From the NCBI GenBank assembly GCA_041659685.1, contig JBAZXV010000006.1:2032-66031 (forward strand): a DNA stretch of 64,000 bases, in the 5' to 3' direction. This stretch comes from Parcubacteria group bacterium (GTDB taxonomy: Bacteria > Patescibacteriota > Minisyncoccia > Moranbacterales > UBA11712). The position numbers and the translations under genes were made by a program. Below, in pieces: positions 15,260-51,356 of this stretch (positions are counted from its first letter, which is position 1; every line of letters begins with the position of its first letter). The notes beneath the pieces are model-generated. The model did no database searches. It was not told the DNA's origin and worked only from the letters and a program-made list of their open reading frames with translations.

Positions 15260-15333
15260 TCGAACGGGAAAGGGGTCGGGAAAACGGGAGTTTCCCCGTG
15301 GCGGAAGAATTGAAACCGAGGGGTTTCAAAGAG
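15260..15333 (+). repeat. tRNA-associated ~74-bp repeat, copy 1 (TCGAACGGGAAAGGGGTCGGGAAAACGGGAGTTTCCCCGTGGCGGAAGAATTGAAACCGAGGGGTTTCAAAGAG)
   Basis: Starts 2 nt after the tRNA-Leu discriminator; contains an 8-bp hairpin TTGAAACC-GAGG-GGTTTCAA. It is followed at 15351-15370 by a duplicated 3' fragment of tRNA-Leu (GAGAGTCTCCCCCACGGCAC). Confidence 0.85.
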
Positions 15334-15371
15334 GCGTGAAGCGACGAAGTGAGAGTCTCCCCCACGGCACC

Positions 15372-15557: not shown

Positions 15558-15558
15558 C

Positions 15559-15632
15559 TCGAACGGGAAAGGGGTCGGGAAAACGGGAGTTTCCCCGTGG
15601 CGGAAGAATTGAAACCGAGGGGTTTCAAAGAG
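15559..15632 (+). repeat. tRNA-associated ~74-bp repeat, copy 3
   Basis: Identical to copy 1; followed at 15633-15663 by a duplicated 3' fragment of tRNA-Val (CGAGGTTCGATTCCTCTCGCGCCCAC). Confidence 0.85.
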
Positions 15633-15666
15633 CGCAGCGAGGTTCGATTCCTCTCGCGCCCACATT

Positions 15667-15705
15667 GCCGGGCTAGCTCAGTCCCGCCGGGGGCGGGCAG
15701 GGTCC
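15667..15705 (+). pseudogene. tRNA-like chimera: 5' acceptor/D-arm of tRNA-Phe fused to a CCCGCC...GGCGGGCAGGGTCC GC-hairpin module
   Basis: GCCGGGCTAGCTCAGT is identical to the tRNA-Phe 5' end, then CCCGCCGGGGGCGGGCAGGGTCC. No anticodon arm or T-arm. A related module occurs at 34967-35025. Confidence 0.5.
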
Positions 15706-15753
15706 GAGCAGAGGACTTGAGTTTAAAGTAAAATTAACATCCGAATAATTCTA

Positions 15754-15825
15754 GCCGGGCTAGCTCAGTGGTAGAGCAGAAGACTGAAAATCTTTGTGTG
15801 CCCAGTTCGATTCTGGGGCCCGGCA
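15754..15825 (+). tRNA. tRNA-Phe (anticodon GAA)
   Basis: GCCGGGCTAGCTCAGTGGTAGAGC; anticodon stem GAAGA/TCTTT with loop CTGAAAA; T-arm CCCAGTTCGATTCTGGG; discriminator A. Confidence 0.85.
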
Positions 15826-15840
15826 CAGTTAATGTAATCT

Positions 15841-29937: not shown

Positions 29938-31569
29938 ATGATTAGCAAAATTCCTAAGCCAATCGTCGAAATTATCCAAAAACTCGAAATGGCCGGTTTT
30001 GAGGCTTTTGTCGTGGGCGGGTGCGTGCGAGACCTTCTTATGGATGTTGAGCCGAAGGATTGGGACGTGACGACGATTGCGAAGCCGGAAGAAATTGTGA
30101 AAATATTTCCAGATAGTTTTTATGAAAATAAGTTTGGGACTGTTGGGGTAAAGATTAGGAATTATGAATTAGGAATTATGAATTATGGAGATAAAGAGGG
30201 AATAAGCGTGGTTGAAGTGACGACCTATCGCGTTGAGTCGAAATATTCTGACAAGAGGCATCCGGATGAGGTGAAGTTCGCGAAGACGCTGGAAGAAGAT
30301 TTGAGCCGGAGAGACTTTACAATTAACGCTCTCGCGTTAAAAATATCCAATATCCAATATCTCCCCCTACGGGGGACCACCCGCAGGGTGGCAATATCCA
30401 ACAAAATCTCAAAATTTAAATCTCAAAATACTAAATACCGGACACTAGATGCTAAATACGAGATTATTGATTTGTATGACGGGCAAAAGGATCTCCAAAA
30501 GAAAATCATTCGCGCGGTGGGGGATCCGGATGAACGCTTTGACGAGGACGCGCTTCGAATGATGCGGGCGGTGCGGTTTGCGGTGACGCTCGGAGGAGAC
30601 ATTGCCGTTAAGAAAACCGATGGTCCAAGAAAATTGAATGAAAAACTTCCGTTTGAAATCGAAGAGAAAACCAAAAAGGCAATTGCAAAAAACGCTAAGA
30701 ATTTGAAATATATCGCTCTTGAAAGGATCCAGGATGAGCTTAATAAAATTCTGGTTTCGGATTTTGCCGCTGAAGGAATTGAATTATTAAGAGAATTGAA
30801 ACTGCTTCAATATGTCATTCCCGAACTCGAAAGAGGATACGGAGTGGGACAAAACCGCCATCACATTTACACTATTTATGAACATTTGATTCTTTCGCTC
30901 AAAAATTGTCCTTCGAAAAAAATTGAAGTGCGCCTGGCGGCTCTTCTTCATGATATCGCAAAACCGGAAACAAAGAGGGGCGAGGGCGCATATTCGACGT
31001 TCTATAACCACGATCATGTCGGAGCGCGGGTGGCCGAGAAAATTTTGCGACGGCTGAAATATTCAAACGACGCTATTCAGAAAGTCAGGCTGCTCGTTGA
31101 CCACCATATGTTTTATTACAACGTTGACGAAGTGGGTGCCTCAAGCGTGCGGCGGCTTGTTCAAAAAGTGGGGCTTGAAAATATCGATGATCTTATTGAT
31201 CTTCGCGTCGGCGATCGGCTGGGGTCGGGAGTTCCAAAGGCTGTGCCGTATAAACTCCGCCACTTCAAGTATATGGTGGATAAAGTTTCGAGCGACCCGC
31301 TTTCGGTTAAAATGCTCAAAGTGGACGGCAATGACCTCATGAAAGAGCTTAAGCTTGAACCCGGTCCGAAAATCGGCGCCGTTTTAGACGTTCTCCTTTC
31401 AGAGGTTATTGAAAATCCAAATGAAAATAAGAAGGAAATATTGCTGAAGAGAGCAAAAAAATTATCGGAAGAAAATTTGCCAAAACTTCGCGAAATGGCG
31501 AAGGAAAAAATTGAAGAAAAAAAAGAGGAGGAAGATAAGGAAATTAAGAAAAAATATTGGGTGAAGTGA
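29938..31569 (+). CDS. cca: CCA-adding tRNA nucleotidyltransferase with HD domain; carries an in-frame ~35-aa insertion that contains a genomic repeat
   Basis: 543 aa; Pol-beta head GGCVRDLLM; RDFTINALAL then inserted segment KISNIQYLPLRGTTRRVAISNKISKFKSQNTKYRTLDAKYEIIDLYDG before the usual GQKDL; HD domain LHDIAKP; K/E-rich tail. Confidence 0.75.
   Translation: MISKIPKPIVEIIQKLEMAGFEAFVVGGCVRDLLMDVEPKDWDVTTIAKPEEIVKIFPDSFYENKFGTVGVKIRNYELGIMNYGDKEGISVVEVTTYRVESKYSDKRHPDEVKFAKTLEEDLSRRDFTINALALKISNIQYLPLRGTTRRVAISNKISKFKSQNTKYRTLDAKYEIIDLYDGQKDLQKKIIRAVGDPDERFDEDALRMMRAVRFAVTLGGDIAVKKTDGPRKLNEKLPFEIEEKTKKAIAKNAKNLKYIALERIQDELNKILVSDFAAEGIELLRELKLLQYVIPELERGYGVGQNRHHIYTIYEHLILSLKNCPSKKIEVRLAALLHDIAKPETKRGEGAYSTFYNHDHVGARVAEKILRRLKYSNDAIQKVRLLVDHHMFYYNVDEVGASSVRRLVQKVGLENIDDLIDLRVGDRLGSGVPKAVPYKLRHFKYMVDKVSSDPLSVKMLKVDGNDLMKELKLEPGPKIGAVLDVLLSEVIENPNENKKEILLKRAKKLSEENLPKLREMAKEKIEEKKEEEDKEIKKKYWVK
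30360..30401 (+). repeat. Twin-hairpin ~42-bp repeat (TCTCCCCCTACGGGGGACCACCCGCAGGGTGGCAATATCCAA), copy inside the cca coding sequence
   Basis: Two adjacent hairpins CCCCC-TAC-GGGGG and CCACCC-GCA-GGGTGG; flanked by AATATCCAA direct repeats. A second copy lies at 39702-39743. Confidence 0.8.
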
Positions 31570-32277: not shown

Positions 32278-32643
32278 ATGAAAATTTATTTCGGGCATTC
32301 AAAAAAATTTGATTACAAAAATGAACTCTATGATCCGATCCGAAAAAGCATTTTAAATGAAGAACATGAGATAGTTTTTCCCCATGAAATGAGCGAAGCG
32401 CCTTCGAACTCGAAAAATTTTTTGAAAACGCGCGACTTAATGATCGCGGAGCTGTCGTATCCGGCGACGGGACTCGGAATTGAATTGGGATGGGCGGATG
32501 CTTTCAACGTTCCCATTTTGGGTGTTTATAGAACCGGTTCAAAAGTTTCGAGTTCAGCAAAACTACTGACGGATAATTTCATTGAATATTCTGACCCAGC
32601 AGATTTAGTTGAAAAAATAAAAATATTTTTTAACGGGCTGTAG
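32278..32643 (+). CDS. Hypothetical protein, possibly nucleoside 2-deoxyribosyltransferase-like
   Basis: MKIYFGHS N-terminus and GIELGWA segment reminiscent of the Rossmann-like deoxyribosyltransferase fold. The 3' end overlaps tRNA-Pro by 10 nt. Confidence 0.3.
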   Translation: MKIYFGHSKKFDYKNELYDPIRKSILNEEHEIVFPHEMSEAPSNSKNFLKTRDLMIAELSYPATGLGIELGWADAFNVPILGVYRTGSKVSSSAKLLTDNFIEYSDPADLVEKIKIFFNGL

Positions 32644-32708
32644 TGTATCGGCAACACGCGCGATTCGGGTTCGTGAGACAGAGGGTTCGACTCCCTCCAG
32701 CCCGACCA
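32634..32708 (+). tRNA. tRNA-Pro (anticodon CGG) with encoded CCA
   Basis: Acceptor CGGGCTG/CAGCCCG; D-stem GTGT/ACAC; anticodon stem CGCGA/TCGTG with loop TTCGGGT; T-arm GAGGGTTCGACTCCCTC; then ACCA. Confidence 0.75.
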
Positions 32709-35559: not shown

Positions 35560-35577
35560 AATTACGGGTTAAAAAAT

Positions 35578-35664
35578 GGAGAGTTGGCTGAGTGGACGAA
35601 AGCGGCAGTTTCGAAAACTGCTGTCCTGGAAACGGGACCAGAGGTTCGAATCCTCTACTCTCCG
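35578..35664 (+). tRNA. tRNA-Ser (anticodon CGA)
   Basis: Acceptor GGAGAGT/ACTCTCC with discriminator G; anticodon stem GCAGT/ACTGC with loop TTCGAAA; long variable arm; T-arm AGAGGTTCGAATCCTCT. Confidence 0.8.
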
Positions 35665-35950
35665 AATTTATAATTTTGGCGTGGTGAGGTTTCATCCTAC
35701 GGGTGACTACTCGTCAAGGCGGCGACTCCCTCCCTCTCCGCATCTATCTAAGATCAGTCTTATCGCTCACTTTTGTAAGTGTCTGGTAGGGCTGTTTTAG
35801 TTTGAAACAAGCCATATTTTATTTTCCACGGAAGCGTTCAAAGGTATTTTTTTCAGGGCTTATTTTTAGGTTGTTGACTGGAAATATCCAATTGAGCTAA
35901 TATGAGCTTAGAAATCAACAATCGCAATAATAACCAATAATTGAAAACTT

Positions 35951-39158: not shown

Positions 39159-39677
39159 ATGCTGAATTCCATTATTCAAAACAACATGGGGCTAAGCGTT
39201 ATTGGGGCAGCCGTGGTCGCAATTTTGCTTTTGGTTTGGAATATTTTTCTTCATCTCAATGTCGGCCGCTTAAAGAAAAATCAGCAGCAGCTTTTTTCAG
39301 GGAAAAACGGCGTCGATCTTGAAAAGATAATTCTGGAACACGCGAAAAACTTAAAAGAGCTTGACCGGGACATTCAGGATCTTTACGGCATTTCGAACCG
39401 GATTCACGGTCTGGCCTTGAAATCGGTGCACAAGGTCGGCATCGTCCGCTTTAATCCCTTTAAGGACCTCGGCGGAGATCAAAGCTTTTCTGTGGCCTTT
39501 CTTGACGGAGAGAACTCCGGCGTGGTAATCTCATCGCTCCATACGCGGGAAGGGAACCGTGTTTACTCGAAACCGATTGAGAAAGGGAAGGCCGTAAAAT
39601 ATCCCCTCACGGACGAGGAGCAAGACGCGATAAAAAAAGCGGATGCCGGGGGAAGCAATGCCGGAAAAAAAGCGTAA
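39159..39677 (+). CDS. DUF4446-like membrane-anchored protein
   Basis: 172 aa; N-terminal TM; conserved IVRFNPFKDLGGDQSFSVAFLDGENSGVVISSLH block. Confidence 0.45.
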   Translation: MLNSIIQNNMGLSVIGAAVVAILLLVWNIFLHLNVGRLKKNQQQLFSGKNGVDLEKIILEHAKNLKELDRDIQDLYGISNRIHGLALKSVHKVGIVRFNPFKDLGGDQSFSVAFLDGENSGVVISSLHTREGNRVYSKPIEKGKAVKYPLTDEEQDAIKKADAGGSNAGKKA

Positions 39678-39701
39678 ACTGAGAATAGCCAATAACCAAA
39701 T

Positions 39702-39743
39702 TCTCCCCCTACGAGGGACCACCCGTAGGGTGGCAATATCCAA
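39702..39743 (+). repeat. Twin-hairpin ~42-bp repeat, intergenic copy (TCTCCCCCTACGAGGGACCACCCGTAGGGTGGCAATATCCAA)
   Basis: 39 of 42 nt identical to the copy inside cca; the second hairpin is preserved with a loop change (GCA to GTA). Confidence 0.8.
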
Positions 39744-39852
39744 ATAAGTTCCAATCACCAATGACTGAATAACCAAGATGTTCTTTATTTTGAAAAATTG
39801 GTCATTGATTATTATTTAATTATTGTTCTAGGAATTTGAAGTTTTAAAGATT

Positions 39853-41631
39853 ATGGAAGATGTAGAAAAAGTAAAAGTGAAAATTCCGTCGCTGGTGACC
39901 GTGAAGAAATTCGCGGAACTTTTGGGTCTTTCTGTAACGGATGTCATCAAGGAGCTTATGAAAAATAAAATCCTGGCGACAATCAACGATGAAATAGATT
40001 ACGAAACTGCAGCCGTAATAGCTTCCGATTTGGGGTTTGAAACTGAAGAGGATATCGAGGTGTCGGGATCGGGAGTAATGACGCTGGAACAGCTTGATGA
40101 AATTATGCGGAAGGAAAAAGAATCCGGAAAAAATCTGAAACATCGGCCGCCGGTGGTTACTATCTTGGGCCATGTTGATCACGGGAAAACCACTCTTCTT
40201 GATACGATTCGAAAAACTTCGGTTGTAGAGAAAGAAGCGGGCGGAATCACCCAGCACATCAGCGCCTACCAGGTAAAAAAGAAAGGCGAGATTGTTACGT
40301 TTGTTGATACTCCGGGACATGAGGCTTTTTCTGCTATGCGCGAGCGCGGAGTAAGTCTTGCGGATATTGCGATATTAGTCGTTGCCGCCGATGACGGAGT
40401 CCGTCCGCAGACGGAGGAAGTGATCAAGTATCTTAAGGAAAAGAAGATTCCGATGGTGGTGGCGATAAACAAAATTGACAAGCCTAACGCTAACGTCCAA
40501 AGAGTGAAACAGGAGCTGGCGGACAGAGAAATCATGATTGAGGAGTGGGGCGGAAATATAGTTTCAGCGGAAATATCTGCCAAACAAAACATTGGCATCG
40601 ACGAACTTCTTGACATGGTCCTTCTTGTTGCGGAAGTTGAGGATTTAAGAGCGGACTATAAAAGGCTGCCTCTCGGAGTTGTGATTGAATCCAACCTTGA
40701 TCCTAAAAAGGGACACATGGCGACGGTCTTAGTGCGGACGGGAACCCTGAAAGAGGGACAGGATATTATTGTCGGATCAATTTCCGGGCGGGTGAGAAGA
40801 ATTGAAGATTTTAAAGGCCGTCAGCTCAAAGAAGCCGGGCCTTCAACGCCGGTTACGGTCATCGGGCTCAATCAGTCCCCCAACGTAAACGATGTTTTTC
40901 TGGGTGTGGCTGATCTGAAGTCGGCAAGAGCCATGCAAAAGGATCTTGGAGCCAGCGGAACCGGAACAAGAAAATTCGATTCGCAAAGCATGCTGAAGAG
41001 CATTGAGGATCAGAATATGAACAGACTCAATATTATTCTTAAAACCGATGTGCAAGGGTCGCTCGAGGCCATTGACCAGATTTTGAGCACCATCAAATCC
41101 GAGGAAGTGGGAATAAATTACATAAAACAGGGAGTGGGAGATATTACCGAATCGGATGTAAAGCTTGGACAAACGGCGGGTACGGTTATTTTTGGCTTTA
41201 ACAGCCAGCCGACAACGGTTGCCAAGCGCCTTGCGGAAATGAACAACGTTGAAATAAAAAGTTATAAAATCATCTATGAATTGGTTGAGGATATCAAGAA
41301 GAGACTGGAAGACATGTTGGGAGAGGAAACCGTCAGAACCGATCTCGGAAAATTAAAAGTGCTGGCCATTTTCATGACGGGCAAAAAAGACATGATTGTC
41401 GGCGGAAAAGTGATCTCGGGGAAAATGGTCAACGGGGAAAATATAGAAGTTTTGCGCGAGGAAAAAAATTTGGGACGAGGAAAACTTTCCAATCTTCAGC
41501 AAAACAAAATCAATGTGGATGAGGTGAAAGAGGGAAACGAGTGCGGAATCACTTTTATTGGGGAAACAAAAATAAAAGAGGGAGACACCCTTGTTTGTTT
41601 TCATGAAGAGGTGGTGAAGAAAGTATTATAA
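39853..41631 (+). CDS. infB: Translation initiation factor IF-2 (short N-terminus form)
   Basis: 592 aa; GTPase motifs GHVDHGKTTLLD, DTPGH and NKID. Confidence 0.9.
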   Translation: MEDVEKVKVKIPSLVTVKKFAELLGLSVTDVIKELMKNKILATINDEIDYETAAVIASDLGFETEEDIEVSGSGVMTLEQLDEIMRKEKESGKNLKHRPPVVTILGHVDHGKTTLLDTIRKTSVVEKEAGGITQHISAYQVKKKGEIVTFVDTPGHEAFSAMRERGVSLADIAILVVAADDGVRPQTEEVIKYLKEKKIPMVVAINKIDKPNANVQRVKQELADREIMIEEWGGNIVSAEISAKQNIGIDELLDMVLLVAEVEDLRADYKRLPLGVVIESNLDPKKGHMATVLVRTGTLKEGQDIIVGSISGRVRRIEDFKGRQLKEAGPSTPVTVIGLNQSPNVNDVFLGVADLKSARAMQKDLGASGTGTRKFDSQSMLKSIEDQNMNRLNIILKTDVQGSLEAIDQILSTIKSEEVGINYIKQGVGDITESDVKLGQTAGTVIFGFNSQPTTVAKRLAEMNNVEIKSYKIIYELVEDIKKRLEDMLGEETVRTDLGKLKVLAIFMTGKKDMIVGGKVISGKMVNGENIEVLREEKNLGRGKLSNLQQNKINVDEVKEGNECGITFIGETKIKEGDTLVCFHEEVVKKVL

Positions 41632-50320: not shown

Positions 50321-50393
50321 TCGAACGGGAAAGGGGTCGGGGAAACGGGAGTTTCTCCGGGGTGGAAGTATTGAAACCGAAAGGTTTCAAGGA
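50321..50393 (+). repeat. tRNA-associated ~74-bp repeat, copy 4 (variant TCGAACGGGAAAGGGGTCGGGGAAACGGGAGTTTCTCCGGGGTGGAAGTATTGAAACCGAAAGGTTTCAAGGA)
   Basis: Begins 2 nt after tRNA-Pro; hairpin stem TTGAAACC/GGTTTCAA is preserved with loop GAAA. Followed by hairpin CCGCCAGATGGCGG and a duplicated tRNA-Pro 3' fragment (ATTCCCAGCAGCCCGAAA, 50418-50436). Confidence 0.85.
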
Positions 50394-50471
50394 TCCGCCA
50401 GATGGCGGAAACGTGAAATTCCCAGCAGCCCGAAATAAGAAGAAATAGTAAATAATAAGAGTATTCGCGCT

Positions 50472-51006: not shown

Positions 51007-51080
51007 TCGAACGGGAAAGGGGCCGGGGAAACGGGAGTTTCTCCGGGGTGGAAGTATTGAAACCGAAAAGTTTCAAGGAG
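51007..51080 (+). repeat. tRNA-associated ~74-bp repeat, copy 5
   Basis: TCGAACGGGAAAGGGGCCGGGGAAACGGGAGTTTCTCCGGGGTGGAAGTATTGAAACCGAAAAGTTTCAAGGAG; followed by hairpin GCGAAGCGACGTTCGCTTC and a duplicated tRNA-Gly 3' fragment (CCCTTCACCCGCTCAG, 51097-51113). Confidence 0.85.
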
Positions 51081-51356
51081 CGAAGCGACGTTCGCTTCCC
51101 TTCACCCGCTCAGTTTTCGAAAAATTCAAATCAAGGCTTTCACAAAACTTTTTCCAGTTCTGACCAAAAAATTATTTTCACAAAAATTGGCTTGCTTGAT
51201 CCCTTTTTTGTGTGAATTTTCTTCATATTTAAGGCAAAATATCTCCTCAAAAACTTGGTTCTAGCTGTGTGCCCTTGCTTCTGTCGAACTTACGGAAGCA
51301 CGACTTGACAAAAATAGTGAATAGAGTATGATAATAGTATAATATTCACTAAAAAT

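Follow-up and report, generated by a model that had tools for sequence, protein, structure and literature searches.

How did a hairpin-forming repeat come to lie within the coding sequence of an essential gene, and what kind of element is it? The question is raised by a Moranbacteria gene for a tRNA nucleotidyltransferase (cca), found in a 64-kb stretch of DNA (hereafter, the window). A preliminary description held that a roughly 42-bp, MITE-like repeat forming two adjacent hairpins had inserted in frame in this gene, with a second, intergenic copy elsewhere. The observation is confirmed, and the core of its interpretation is supported. The 42-mer TCTCCCCCTACGGGGGACCACCCGCAGGGTGGCAATATCCAA is present at 30360-30401 (+), and the second copy is at 39702-39743 (+). 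The two are identical at 40 of 42 positions, not at 39 as first described, and none of 100 dinucleotide-preserving shuffles gave any match. The similarity between the sites extends to 71 nt at 85% identity (30342-30412 versus 39684-39754, +), and includes AATANCCAA-type flanks.

The repeated unit, however, is exactly 30 nt long, not about 42. In cca it is TCCCCCTACGGGGGACCACCCGCAGGGTGG, located at 30362-30391 (+), and it comprises a T, a 5-bp stem with a 3-nt loop, an A, and a 6-bp stem with a 3-nt loop. We refer to it as the twin hairpin (TH). The cca copy folds as two adjacent perfect hairpins at -20.3 kcal/mol (z = -3.3; 0 of 200 shuffles were as stable), and a covariance model of the element scores it at 51.1 bits (E = 1.7e-12). 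The second copy, TCCCCCTACGAGGGACCACCCGTAGGGTGG, is found at 39704-39733 (+), between an unnamed 172-aa ORF (39159-39677) and infB (39853-41631; identified as IF-2 by NCBIfam); it scores 46.5 bits (E = 3.4e-11) and is flanked by the same kind of CCAAT-type short repeats. As first noted, it has a loop change in hairpin 2 (GCA to GTA), but it also carries a stem mismatch in hairpin 1 (GGGGG to GAGGG), and it is predicted to refold as one longer hairpin. The model detects no other full copy in the window; a degenerate half-copy (TCATCCTACGGGTGAC...; 14.5 bits, E = 0.03) is located at 35692-35722 (+), just downstream of a tRNA-Ser gene (35577-35665).

The host ORF (29938-31569, +) encodes a 543-aa class II tRNA nucleotidyltransferase, probably of the CCA-adding type. 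It has the Pfam PolyA_pol head (PF01743, E = 2.9e-31), RNA-binding (PF12627), HD (PF01966) and tRNA_NucTran2_2 (PF13735) domains, the HD domain being C-terminal, and the motifs GGCVRD, DWDV and RRDFT are evident in its translation. Its model matches CCA-adding enzymes with a target-normalised TM of about 0.7, the fold matching 6qy6 and 1miv. The best NCBIfam hit is a CCA tRNA nucleotidyltransferase (PRK13299), but its score of 253 bits falls below the 290-bit cut-off. Notably, 13 of the 14 tRNA genes in the window lack an encoded CCA end. The reading frame is open through the TH, which lies between RDFTINALALKI and YEIIDLYDGQKDL in a segment that is 33 aa longer than in minimal 496-aa orthologues and about 36 aa longer than in solved CCA-adding enzymes.

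This segment is composite. In an alignment of 120 orthologues, the variable region (30346-30459, +; residues 137-174, SNIQY...DAKY) replaces the 5-aa turn KNSDF of the minimal orthologues, and the solved structures 6ibp and 1miv have only three residues here. It consists of an older, AT-rich repeat tract shared with three orthologues (P0002, P0009 and P0030), to which the TH later added 10 residues: a proline becomes LPLRGTTRRVA (L142-A152). AlphaFold models residues 142-170 with pLDDT below 50, between strands 133-137 and 173-177; although low pLDDT is not proof of a surface loop, this is consistent with a disordered coil at a tolerant β-turn. A second hypervariable β-turn in the same gene harbours an in-frame 14-nt tandem, AGGAATTATGAATT x2 (30157-30184, +), within residues 73-90 (IRNYELGIMNYGDKEGIS); it has no hairpin potential, and minimal orthologues have the 4-aa turn SEVG there. 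Among the 120 orthologues, both sites carry many unrelated inserts, up to a domain of roughly 190 aa.

The copies of AATATCCAA that flank the hairpin, initially described as flanking direct repeats, occur at 30342, 30349 and 30393. They are not target-site duplications. Rather, they are units of a pre-existing (AATATCC)4 heptamer array (30342-30401, +) that is interrupted by the TH, which was inserted at ...AATATC^CAATATCC.... Orthologue P0030 has (AATTTCC)4 with no hairpin, and P0002 has the same four units plus a different, 36-nt hairpin, of which no other copy was found among the 138 loci examined. Once the hairpins are removed, the three genes have equal numbers of units. At the protein level, KISNIQY[P>LPLRGTTRRVA]ISNK compares with KISNFQFPISNK in P0009. 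Only 1 of the 120 orthologues has the TH; because the nearest of them are only about 80% identical, the inference of a gain in this lineage, as opposed to losses elsewhere, rests on parsimony.

The TH is a member of a dispersed family, with the consensus T-CNCCC-TAC-GGGNG-A-CCNCCC-GNA-GGGNGG. Identical 30-mers occur in four other Patescibacteria (CPR) MAGs, and the cca copy is identical to those at the loci that we term L001, L002, L004 and L008. About 60 loci remained after duplicates were collapsed. In 20 variants, the twin-hairpin structure has 95% of cells paired, with five pairs changed on both sides and 0 of 500 shuffles reaching the observed covariation score; a single long hairpin has 85% paired, although the GTA-loop variants can adopt both. 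Further compensatory variants include CAGCC/GGCTG, CCCGC/GCGGG, CCAGCC/GGCTGG and CAACC/GGTTG. Because the metagenome search pattern fixed both loops and most stem bases, these statistics describe one subfamily. A fully degenerate structural pattern, scanned against viral contigs, yielded only two chance hits, in Gly/Pro-rich and low-complexity DNA. Rfam searches found nothing at the element or at the GIY-YIG module discussed below, either at gathering thresholds or at E values up to 10. The ACCA following hairpin 1 resembles a tRNA minihelix 3' end, but the final A is not conserved (a variant at locus L003 has ACCG).

In four empty/filled comparisons, the insertion is exactly 30 nt and lacks a target-site duplication: the cca array; L002, where an intact tRNA-Glu (CTTT^CAA) is compared with its filled duplicate; L016, with an adjacent empty hairpin (GAGGTCTTT^CCTC); and L090 (CCAGGTTTT^CATCCTGG). 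Many copies are flanked by 5-7-nt direct repeats, but no testable empty site shows a duplication, and the repeats are pre-existing tandem arrays; the equal unit counts also argue against the arrays being footprints of repeated insertion and excision. The insertion sites share the motif TTN^(C/A)AA. Over 60 loci, position -3 is T in 56 and -1 is T in 56; of 59 loci, +1 is C in 34 and A in 13, +2 is A in 50, and +3 is A in 44. The cca copy sits at TATC^CAAT and the intergenic copy at ATTC^CAAT. In one metagenome lineage, about 70 nt including the flanks is repeated, and the two window copies also share AT-rich flanks. The unit that spreads within a genome may therefore sometimes be larger than 30 nt, or copies may spread by gene conversion between similar repeat tracts.

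Copies of the TH recur in frame in genes for IleRS, ValRS, PheT, LigA, CarA, TatD, Tgt, TsaD and GT4 glycosyltransferases, in four reading frames. The unit is 10 codons long and free of stop codons in five of six frames, and it therefore cannot break the reading frame. No long gene is split by a copy in the one frame that carries a stop codon, but this absence is statistically weak (about two would be expected; P is about 0.09). The cca copy is most likely translated, an inference drawn from the open frame and from the pattern across genes rather than from transcripts or peptides. With reasonable confidence, then, we regard the feature as a solo copy of the TH that inserted into an array already occupying a β-hairpin turn of the enzyme's head domain. 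It is selfish or neutral DNA tolerated by an essential gene, not an adaptation of cca.

How the element moves is inferred, not shown. The only recurrent neighbouring gene is an 80-aa GIY-YIG nuclease ORF, present at 8 of 60 loci on the same strand and starting 15-50 nt after the TH. In this module the TH sits at TTTT^CAT in the anticodon loop of a truncated tRNA-Glu copy, and the ORF is followed by an intact tRNA-Glu; the arrangement held in five of five loci chosen without regard to the hairpin, including Bacteroidota. We tentatively favour a mechanism in which the GIY-YIG nuclease nicks or cuts anticodon-loop-like TTN^CAA sequences, and the break is repaired by copying the 30-mer from a TH-bearing locus using the 3-4-nt flanking microhomologies. 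An equivalent reading is that the TH is the end of the cassette and can move alone. However, neither a GIY-YIG gene nor a tRNA-Glu was found in the 64-kb window, and a standalone 80-aa GIY-YIG domain has no known transposase or integrase activity. It is possible, though no more than that, that the TH is the recognition or terminal structure of an undescribed class of selfish element, a GIY-YIG cassette occupying the anticodon loop of tRNA-Glu genes in at least two phyla (Patescibacteria and Bacteroidota), and that in CPR bacteria the hairpin module has become a non-autonomous, codon-compatible parasite that copies itself into TTN^CAA sites throughout gene-dense genomes, including essential genes such as cca, the aminoacyl-tRNA synthetases, ligA and tsaD.

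An alternative that we consider unlikely, but the most credible of the rivals, is that the TH moves as single-stranded hairpin DNA by the action in trans of an HUH/Y1 enzyme of the IS200/IS605 TnpA or RAYT type, as for REP/REPIN and PATE elements; truncated tRNA copies would then be merely neutral landing sites containing TTT^CA, and the GIY-YIG association incidental. Duplication-free insertion 3' of a short specific motif favours this notion, as do the resemblance of the two hairpins to minimal left-end and right-end hairpins, the quasi-palindromic nature of the element (the reverse strand still scores 31 bits), and the location of some copies in the loops of other hairpins, which would be exposed as single-stranded DNA. 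Yet no Y1/HUH-like gene recurred within 1.5 kb of a TH in the 60 loci, although only these neighbourhoods, not whole genomes, were searched, and the invariant position of the TH in the GIY-YIG/tRNA-Glu module across phyla is hard to explain as an accident. Less likely still is that the hairpin is a functional cis element retained by selection, such as an RNA stability or processing signal or a protein-binding site, with a regulatory role in cca. Its stems are maintained by compensatory changes, its placement upstream of the GIY-YIG start codon could suit an operator or a 5' RNA structure, and 10 of 11 first-pass copies internal to genes are in the sense orientation. Nonetheless, its contexts are too varied for one function: either orientation between genes, four frames inside unrelated ORFs, the loops of dead tRNA fragments, and nested within other repeats. 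Moreover, 119 of 120 cca orthologues lack it, and stem conservation is equally expected if an enzyme must recognise the hairpins for the element to spread.

We find two further possibilities very improbable. The 30-mer could be removed from the RNA as a mini-intron, or skipped by the ribosome between the matching ATA-TCC-AA sequences on either side, as with the "byp" GC elements of yeast mitochondria or T4 gene 60; a stable hairpin pair flanked by identical short sequences is present, and copies occur in tRNA-like loops, where introns are known in other domains of life. But there is no stop codon after the would-be take-off site, the unit is always 30 nt and, within genes, is seen only in open frames, and deleting the TH in silico restored no tRNA in 21 cases and no long split gene. 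In many of these cases an intact tRNA, often of the same type, lies next to the fragment, so the hosts are fragments and not intron-bearing genes. Finally, the site is a hotspot for low-complexity tandem repeats, which might suggest local origin by slippage or hairpin extension, or an assembly artefact. This idea is contradicted by the identical 30-mer in unrelated genes and genomes from independent assemblies and by the unchanged presence of the protein in NCBI and JGI records.

These findings add a second, independent case, after Rickettsia, of selfish palindromes residing in essential protein-coding genes. CPR proteins are known for unexplained insertions, and part of this extra sequence may simply be repeat DNA, with consequences for annotation, alignments, phylogenies and structure prediction. 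The TH would be among the smallest insertion modules of which we are aware. The arrangement of truncated tRNA-Glu with hairpin, GIY-YIG ORF and intact tRNA-Glu appears undescribed, as our literature searches found no account of it or of the TH, and it may represent a new way for a nuclease gene to parasitise tRNA genes.

The closest precedent is the Rickettsia palindromic elements (RPEs; Ogata et al. 2000, 2002, as summarised in PMC10969869). Like the TH, they are palindromic repeats that colonise protein-coding genes of a reduced-genome bacterium in frame, including essential and metabolic genes, and that also occur between genes; their translated segments are judged compatible with the fold. 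RPEs, however, are about 100-150 bp, are restricted to Rickettsia, and encode in each family a conserved peptide in one frame. Judged by its size and its four reading frames, rather than by direct sequence comparison, the TH does not belong to an RPE family; it also occurs in both orientations, inserts without duplication at a defined motif, and is tied to the GIY-YIG/tRNA-Glu cassette. The term "MITE-like" fits only loosely. Classical MITEs (Correia, ERIC, BOX and others; PMC10969869) are likewise small, non-coding, dispersed elements with inverted-repeat character that can create in-frame fusions, but they are roughly 50-500 bp, have terminal inverted repeats derived from a parent IS, and make target-site duplications, whereas the TH made none in four of four comparisons, and no DDE transposon parent was seen near the copies. 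REP/BIME/REPIN elements are similarly short (about 20-40 nt), GC-rich, often paired imperfect palindromes with compensatory stem changes and a single associated nuclease-type gene, but they are by definition extragenic, typically carry a 5' GTAG-type tetranucleotide and associate with RAYT genes, whereas the only recurrent neighbour of the TH is the GIY-YIG ORF; 11 of about 60 unique TH loci are internal to ORFs. With IS200/IS605 and their PATE derivatives the TH shares hairpin ends and duplication-free insertion next to a short specific sequence, although those elements are generally at least 100 nt long with distinct ends and require a Y1 TnpA, no gene for which was seen near a TH. The GC clusters of yeast mitochondrial DNA, including those in var1 and the byp elements of Magnusiomyces, appear comparable as 30-50-nt GC-rich palindromes spreading in an AT-rich, gene-dense genome and entering coding sequence without destroying function, but they are organellar, their mobility is linked to gene conversion or unknown factors, and the byps are bypassed rather than translated. 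Lastly, free-standing GIY-YIG homing endonuclease genes and elements that integrate in the anticodon or T loops of tRNA genes (e.g. Williams 2002) offer a parallel to the cassette, in that a selfish nuclease gene sits beside a partial duplicate of its tRNA target, with an intact tRNA regenerated and the junction in the anticodon loop. Such tRNA-integrating elements generally use tyrosine integrases and are kilobases long, and GIY-YIG homing enzymes usually carry DNA-binding domains; here, the ORF is a bare 80-aa GIY-YIG domain, and a structured 30-mer marks the junction.

The 42-mer singled out in the preliminary description is found at 30360-30401. It recurs at 39702-39743 with two mismatches, such that the two are identical at 40 of 42 positions rather than at the 39 of 42 originally claimed; none of 100 shuffles produced a match. 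Further, the similarity between the two sites extends over 71 nt at 85%. The copy in cca folds into two adjacent perfect hairpins, CCCCC-TAC-GGGGG and CCACCC-GCA-GGGTGG, with an energy of -20.3 kcal/mol (z = -3.3, with 0 of 200 shuffles as stable). The intergenic copy has the loop change noted in the preliminary description, but we also found a stem mismatch in its hairpin 1. It can refold as one longer hairpin, because its GTA loop complements the TAC loop. A degenerate half twin-hairpin (35692-35722) lies just 3' of tRNA-Ser (35577-35665), possibly in a decayed tRNA-like fragment.

The organism is a Candidatus Moranbacteria (Parcubacteria, CPR) MAG, and the identical protein (P0001 in our set of orthologues) is on an 81.6-kb contig. 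The copy in cca lies in the ORF at 29938..31569 (543 aa), which has PolyA_pol head, RNA-binding, HD and tRNA_NucTran2_2 domains. The predicted fold of the product matches class II CCA-adding enzymes, with a target-normalised TM of about 0.7, and NCBIfam places it nearest to CCA tRNA nucleotidyltransferase, although below the equivalog cut-off. Of the 14 tRNA genes in the window, only tRNA-Pro (32634-32708) encodes its 3' CCA; the other 13 do not, from which we infer that a CCA-adding activity must be essential here.

To delimit the insertion, we aligned 120 orthologues of 62-81% identity. The alignment shows two hypervariable sites in the head domain: site A, between GTVGVK and VVEVTTYR, and site B, between INALALKI and (Y/F)EIIDL. 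Minimal orthologues of 496 aa have turns of four and five residues at these sites (SEVG and KNSDF, respectively). The present protein has an additional 14 aa at site A, where the insert is an in-frame 14-nt tandem repeat (AGGAATTATGAATT x2, at 30157-30184) that gives RNYELGIMNY and has no hairpin potential, and an additional 33 aa at site B. Other orthologues carry many unrelated inserts at the same two sites, and several peptide types, such as PHPSPLLIKERE and NFSKVRPFPSSS..IPQGQTLKN, appear at both. Three Moranbacteria orthologues (P0043, P0045 and P0061) carry an insertion of about 190 aa with HD-like motifs (..HDVGR..) at site A; a whole domain is thus nested in this turn of the head domain. 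Only the orthologue studied here has the twin-hairpin peptide. Solved CCA-adding enzymes (6ibp, 1miv) have three residues where this protein has 39. An AlphaFold2 model built with 56 sequences (mean pLDDT 77) gives a pLDDT below 50 for residues 142-170, which are modelled as coil between strands 133-137 and 173-177; we note that model confidence is only indirect evidence for a surface loop.

DNA from three of the orthologues resolves the history of site B. P0016 has the bare turn, whereas P0030 has (AATTTCC)x4 and no hairpin. P0002 has the same four units, interrupted by a different 36-nt hairpin (CCTGCCCGAATTGCTTCGCAAAACGAAGCAAGCGGG, at 1190-1230 of its locus, L127), which is in frame and of which no other copy occurs in the 138 loci that we examined. 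The window has (AATATCC)x4, interrupted by exactly 30 nt. The heptamer array is therefore older and shared, and the 30-mer came later and made no target-site duplication. At the protein level, KISNFQFPISNK of the orthologue P0009 corresponds here to KISNIQY[LPLRGTTRRVA]ISNK; one Pro codon is split, for a net gain of 10 residues (142-152).

The element is a member of a large family. A scan of one genome per species found the core in four other Patescibacteria or Moraniibacteriota MAGs. In the first of these loci (L001) it is inside tsaD, in the same frame as in cca (FLPLRGTTRRVAIS); in L004 it is inside a GT4 glycosyltransferase gene, in another frame (SPPTGDHPQGGN); and in L002 and L003 it is in loops of tRNA-like fragments. 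The stems covary: hairpin 1 appears as CACCC/GGGTG, CCCCC/GGGGG, CTCCC/GGGAG and CGCCC/GGGCG, and hairpin 2 as CCACCC/GGGTGG and CCTCCC/GGGAGG. On 20 variants, the twin-hairpin structure has 95% of cells paired and five pairs changed on both sides, and no shuffle in 500 reached the observed covariation score; a single long hairpin gives 85%. A covariance model then recovered further, more diverged copies with new compensatory pairs. The core is almost always preceded by T (56 of 60 loci), which gives a unit of 30 nt.

Four comparisons of empty and filled sites all show the insertion of exactly 30 nt with no duplication (a caret marks the point of insertion). In L002, the intact tRNA-Glu has CTTT^CAA in its anticodon loop, and the neighbouring duplicate has the 30-mer at that point. 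In locus L016, an empty hairpin, GAGGTCTTT^CCTC, lies next to a filled one, and in locus L090 the site is CCAGGTTTT^CATCCTGG. The cca series constitutes the fourth comparison. Across 60 loci, the flanks read T(-4) T(-3) N(-2) before the 30-mer and C/A(+1) A(+2) A(+3) after it. Many copies sit in 7-9-nt AT-rich tandem arrays or in the apical loop of another hairpin.

Eleven of about 60 loci are internal to long ORFs. NCBIfam identifies the hosts, in addition to cca, as IleRS, ValRS, PheRS-beta, LigA, CarA, TatD, Tgt, TsaD and glycosyltransferases; LigA and PheT each carry a second, diverged copy. The encoded peptides are of the types HPTGDHPKGG (six copies), PLRGTTRRVA (three copies) and PYGGPPVGW (one copy) in the sense orientation, and PPFGRSPVGR (one copy) in the antisense orientation. 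Sense orientation predominates inside genes (10 of 11) but not between genes, which fits selection acting on the encoded peptide. Five of the six frames are free of stop codons. No long gene was found to be split by a copy in the sixth frame, but the statistical power of this observation is low (P about 0.09). Because the length is 30 nt even in non-coding sites, frame preservation is an intrinsic property of the element and not a filter artefact. Other repeat-derived peptides recur inside CPR housekeeping proteins, including IleRS (locus L122), TsaD (L001) and many of the cca orthologues. Examples are LPTGQAGGRQA, NSSRSNL/GSTFPFPD, PHPSPLLIKERE and IPQGQTLKN, the last two of which are seen at both variable sites of cca in different species. 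This suggests that there are several further families of in-frame hairpin repeats.

The occurrence of copies in tRNA-like sequences raises the question of whether the element is an intron. We deleted the 30-mer in silico from 21 tRNA-like contexts, and ARAGORN called no tRNA across the junction in any of them. In many of these contexts, an intact tRNA, often of the same type, lies next to the fragment. The hosts are therefore truncated duplicates, not intron-bearing genes. In the window, an element of about 85-106 nt (TCGAACGGGAAAGGGGTCGGGAAAACGGGAGTTTCCCCGTGGCGGAAGAATTGAAACCGAGGGGTTTCAAAGAG; 15261-15365, 15558-15664, 50321-50426 and 51007-51112) sits directly after tRNA 3' ends and is followed by a duplicate of the last 22-24 nt or so of that tRNA; it looks like a small insertion that targets tRNA 3' ends and leaves an att-like duplication. 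Also, a 5' fragment (15669-15720) of the tRNA-Phe that follows it (GCCGGGCTAGCTCAGT) carries a different GC hairpin, CCCGCCGGGGGCGGG, in its D-loop, upstream of the intact gene at 15754-15826.

The only gene family that recurs within 1.5 kb of the hairpin is an ORF of approximately 80 aa with a GIY-YIG domain (PF01541, E down to 1e-17). It occurs in 8 of 60 loci, is always on the same strand, and starts 15-50 nt after the hairpin. All 12 such ORFs in 610 kb of loci lie within 525 nt of a hairpin. Because those loci had been selected for the hairpin, we reversed the test and began instead with homologs of the GIY-YIG protein, which come from CPR phyla and also from Bacteroidota. All five loci (six units; L130, at 2400-2930, and L132, L134, L137 and L138, around the GIY-YIG ORF) have the same layout: positions 1-35 of tRNA-Glu(UUC), ending ...AGGTTTT; the 30-nt twin hairpin, with covariance-model scores of 22-46 bits and new compensatory variants; CATCCTG.., the remainder of the anticodon arm; the GIY-YIG ORF; and an intact tRNA-Glu directly after the stop codon. 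These loci include a Cyclobacteriaceae MAG and a 3.1-Mb contig, and the module is sometimes present in tandem (L090, L138). Taxonomic labels exist only for loci from named MAG records in the genome scan and from NCBI records. The hairpin is a conserved component of a cross-phylum cassette, and its position there, TTTT^CAT, matches the flank consensus of the solo copies.

We conclude that the feature in cca is a solo copy of this element, which landed in a heptamer array at a turn that tolerates almost anything and, although no expression data are available, is probably translated as a disordered 10-residue addition. Its mobility is inferred, no strain-level polymorphism having been obtained, from the identical 30-mers in unrelated contexts and species, the precise empty sites, and the absence of the hairpin from 119 of 120 orthologues. 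The mechanism is not shown. We tentatively favor a process that depends on the GIY-YIG nuclease, in which the enzyme would cut at anticodon-loop-like TTN^CAA sites and the break would be repaired from a hairpin-bearing template through the short flanking microhomologies; alternatively, the hairpin may act as the mobile end of the cassette. Neither a GIY-YIG gene nor a tRNA-Glu lies in the window, however. The main rival to this model is single-strand transposition of the HUH/Y1 type, as for REP or IS200/IS605 elements.

We found no description of the element in Rfam or in the literature that could be searched, coverage of which was incomplete. It is possible that the cassette behind it is a new kind of selfish element. 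The hairpin does not satisfy the criteria for a MITE, as it makes no duplication and is too small, nor those for a REP, as it is not extragenic; no RAYT gene was seen in the neighborhoods searched. The nearest precedent is the Rickettsia palindromic elements (RPEs), which are in-frame palindromes in essential genes (PMC10969869). The twin hairpin differs from them in that it is about four to five times shorter than an RPE, is used in several reading frames, inserts without duplication at a defined motif, and is tied to a nuclease cassette.
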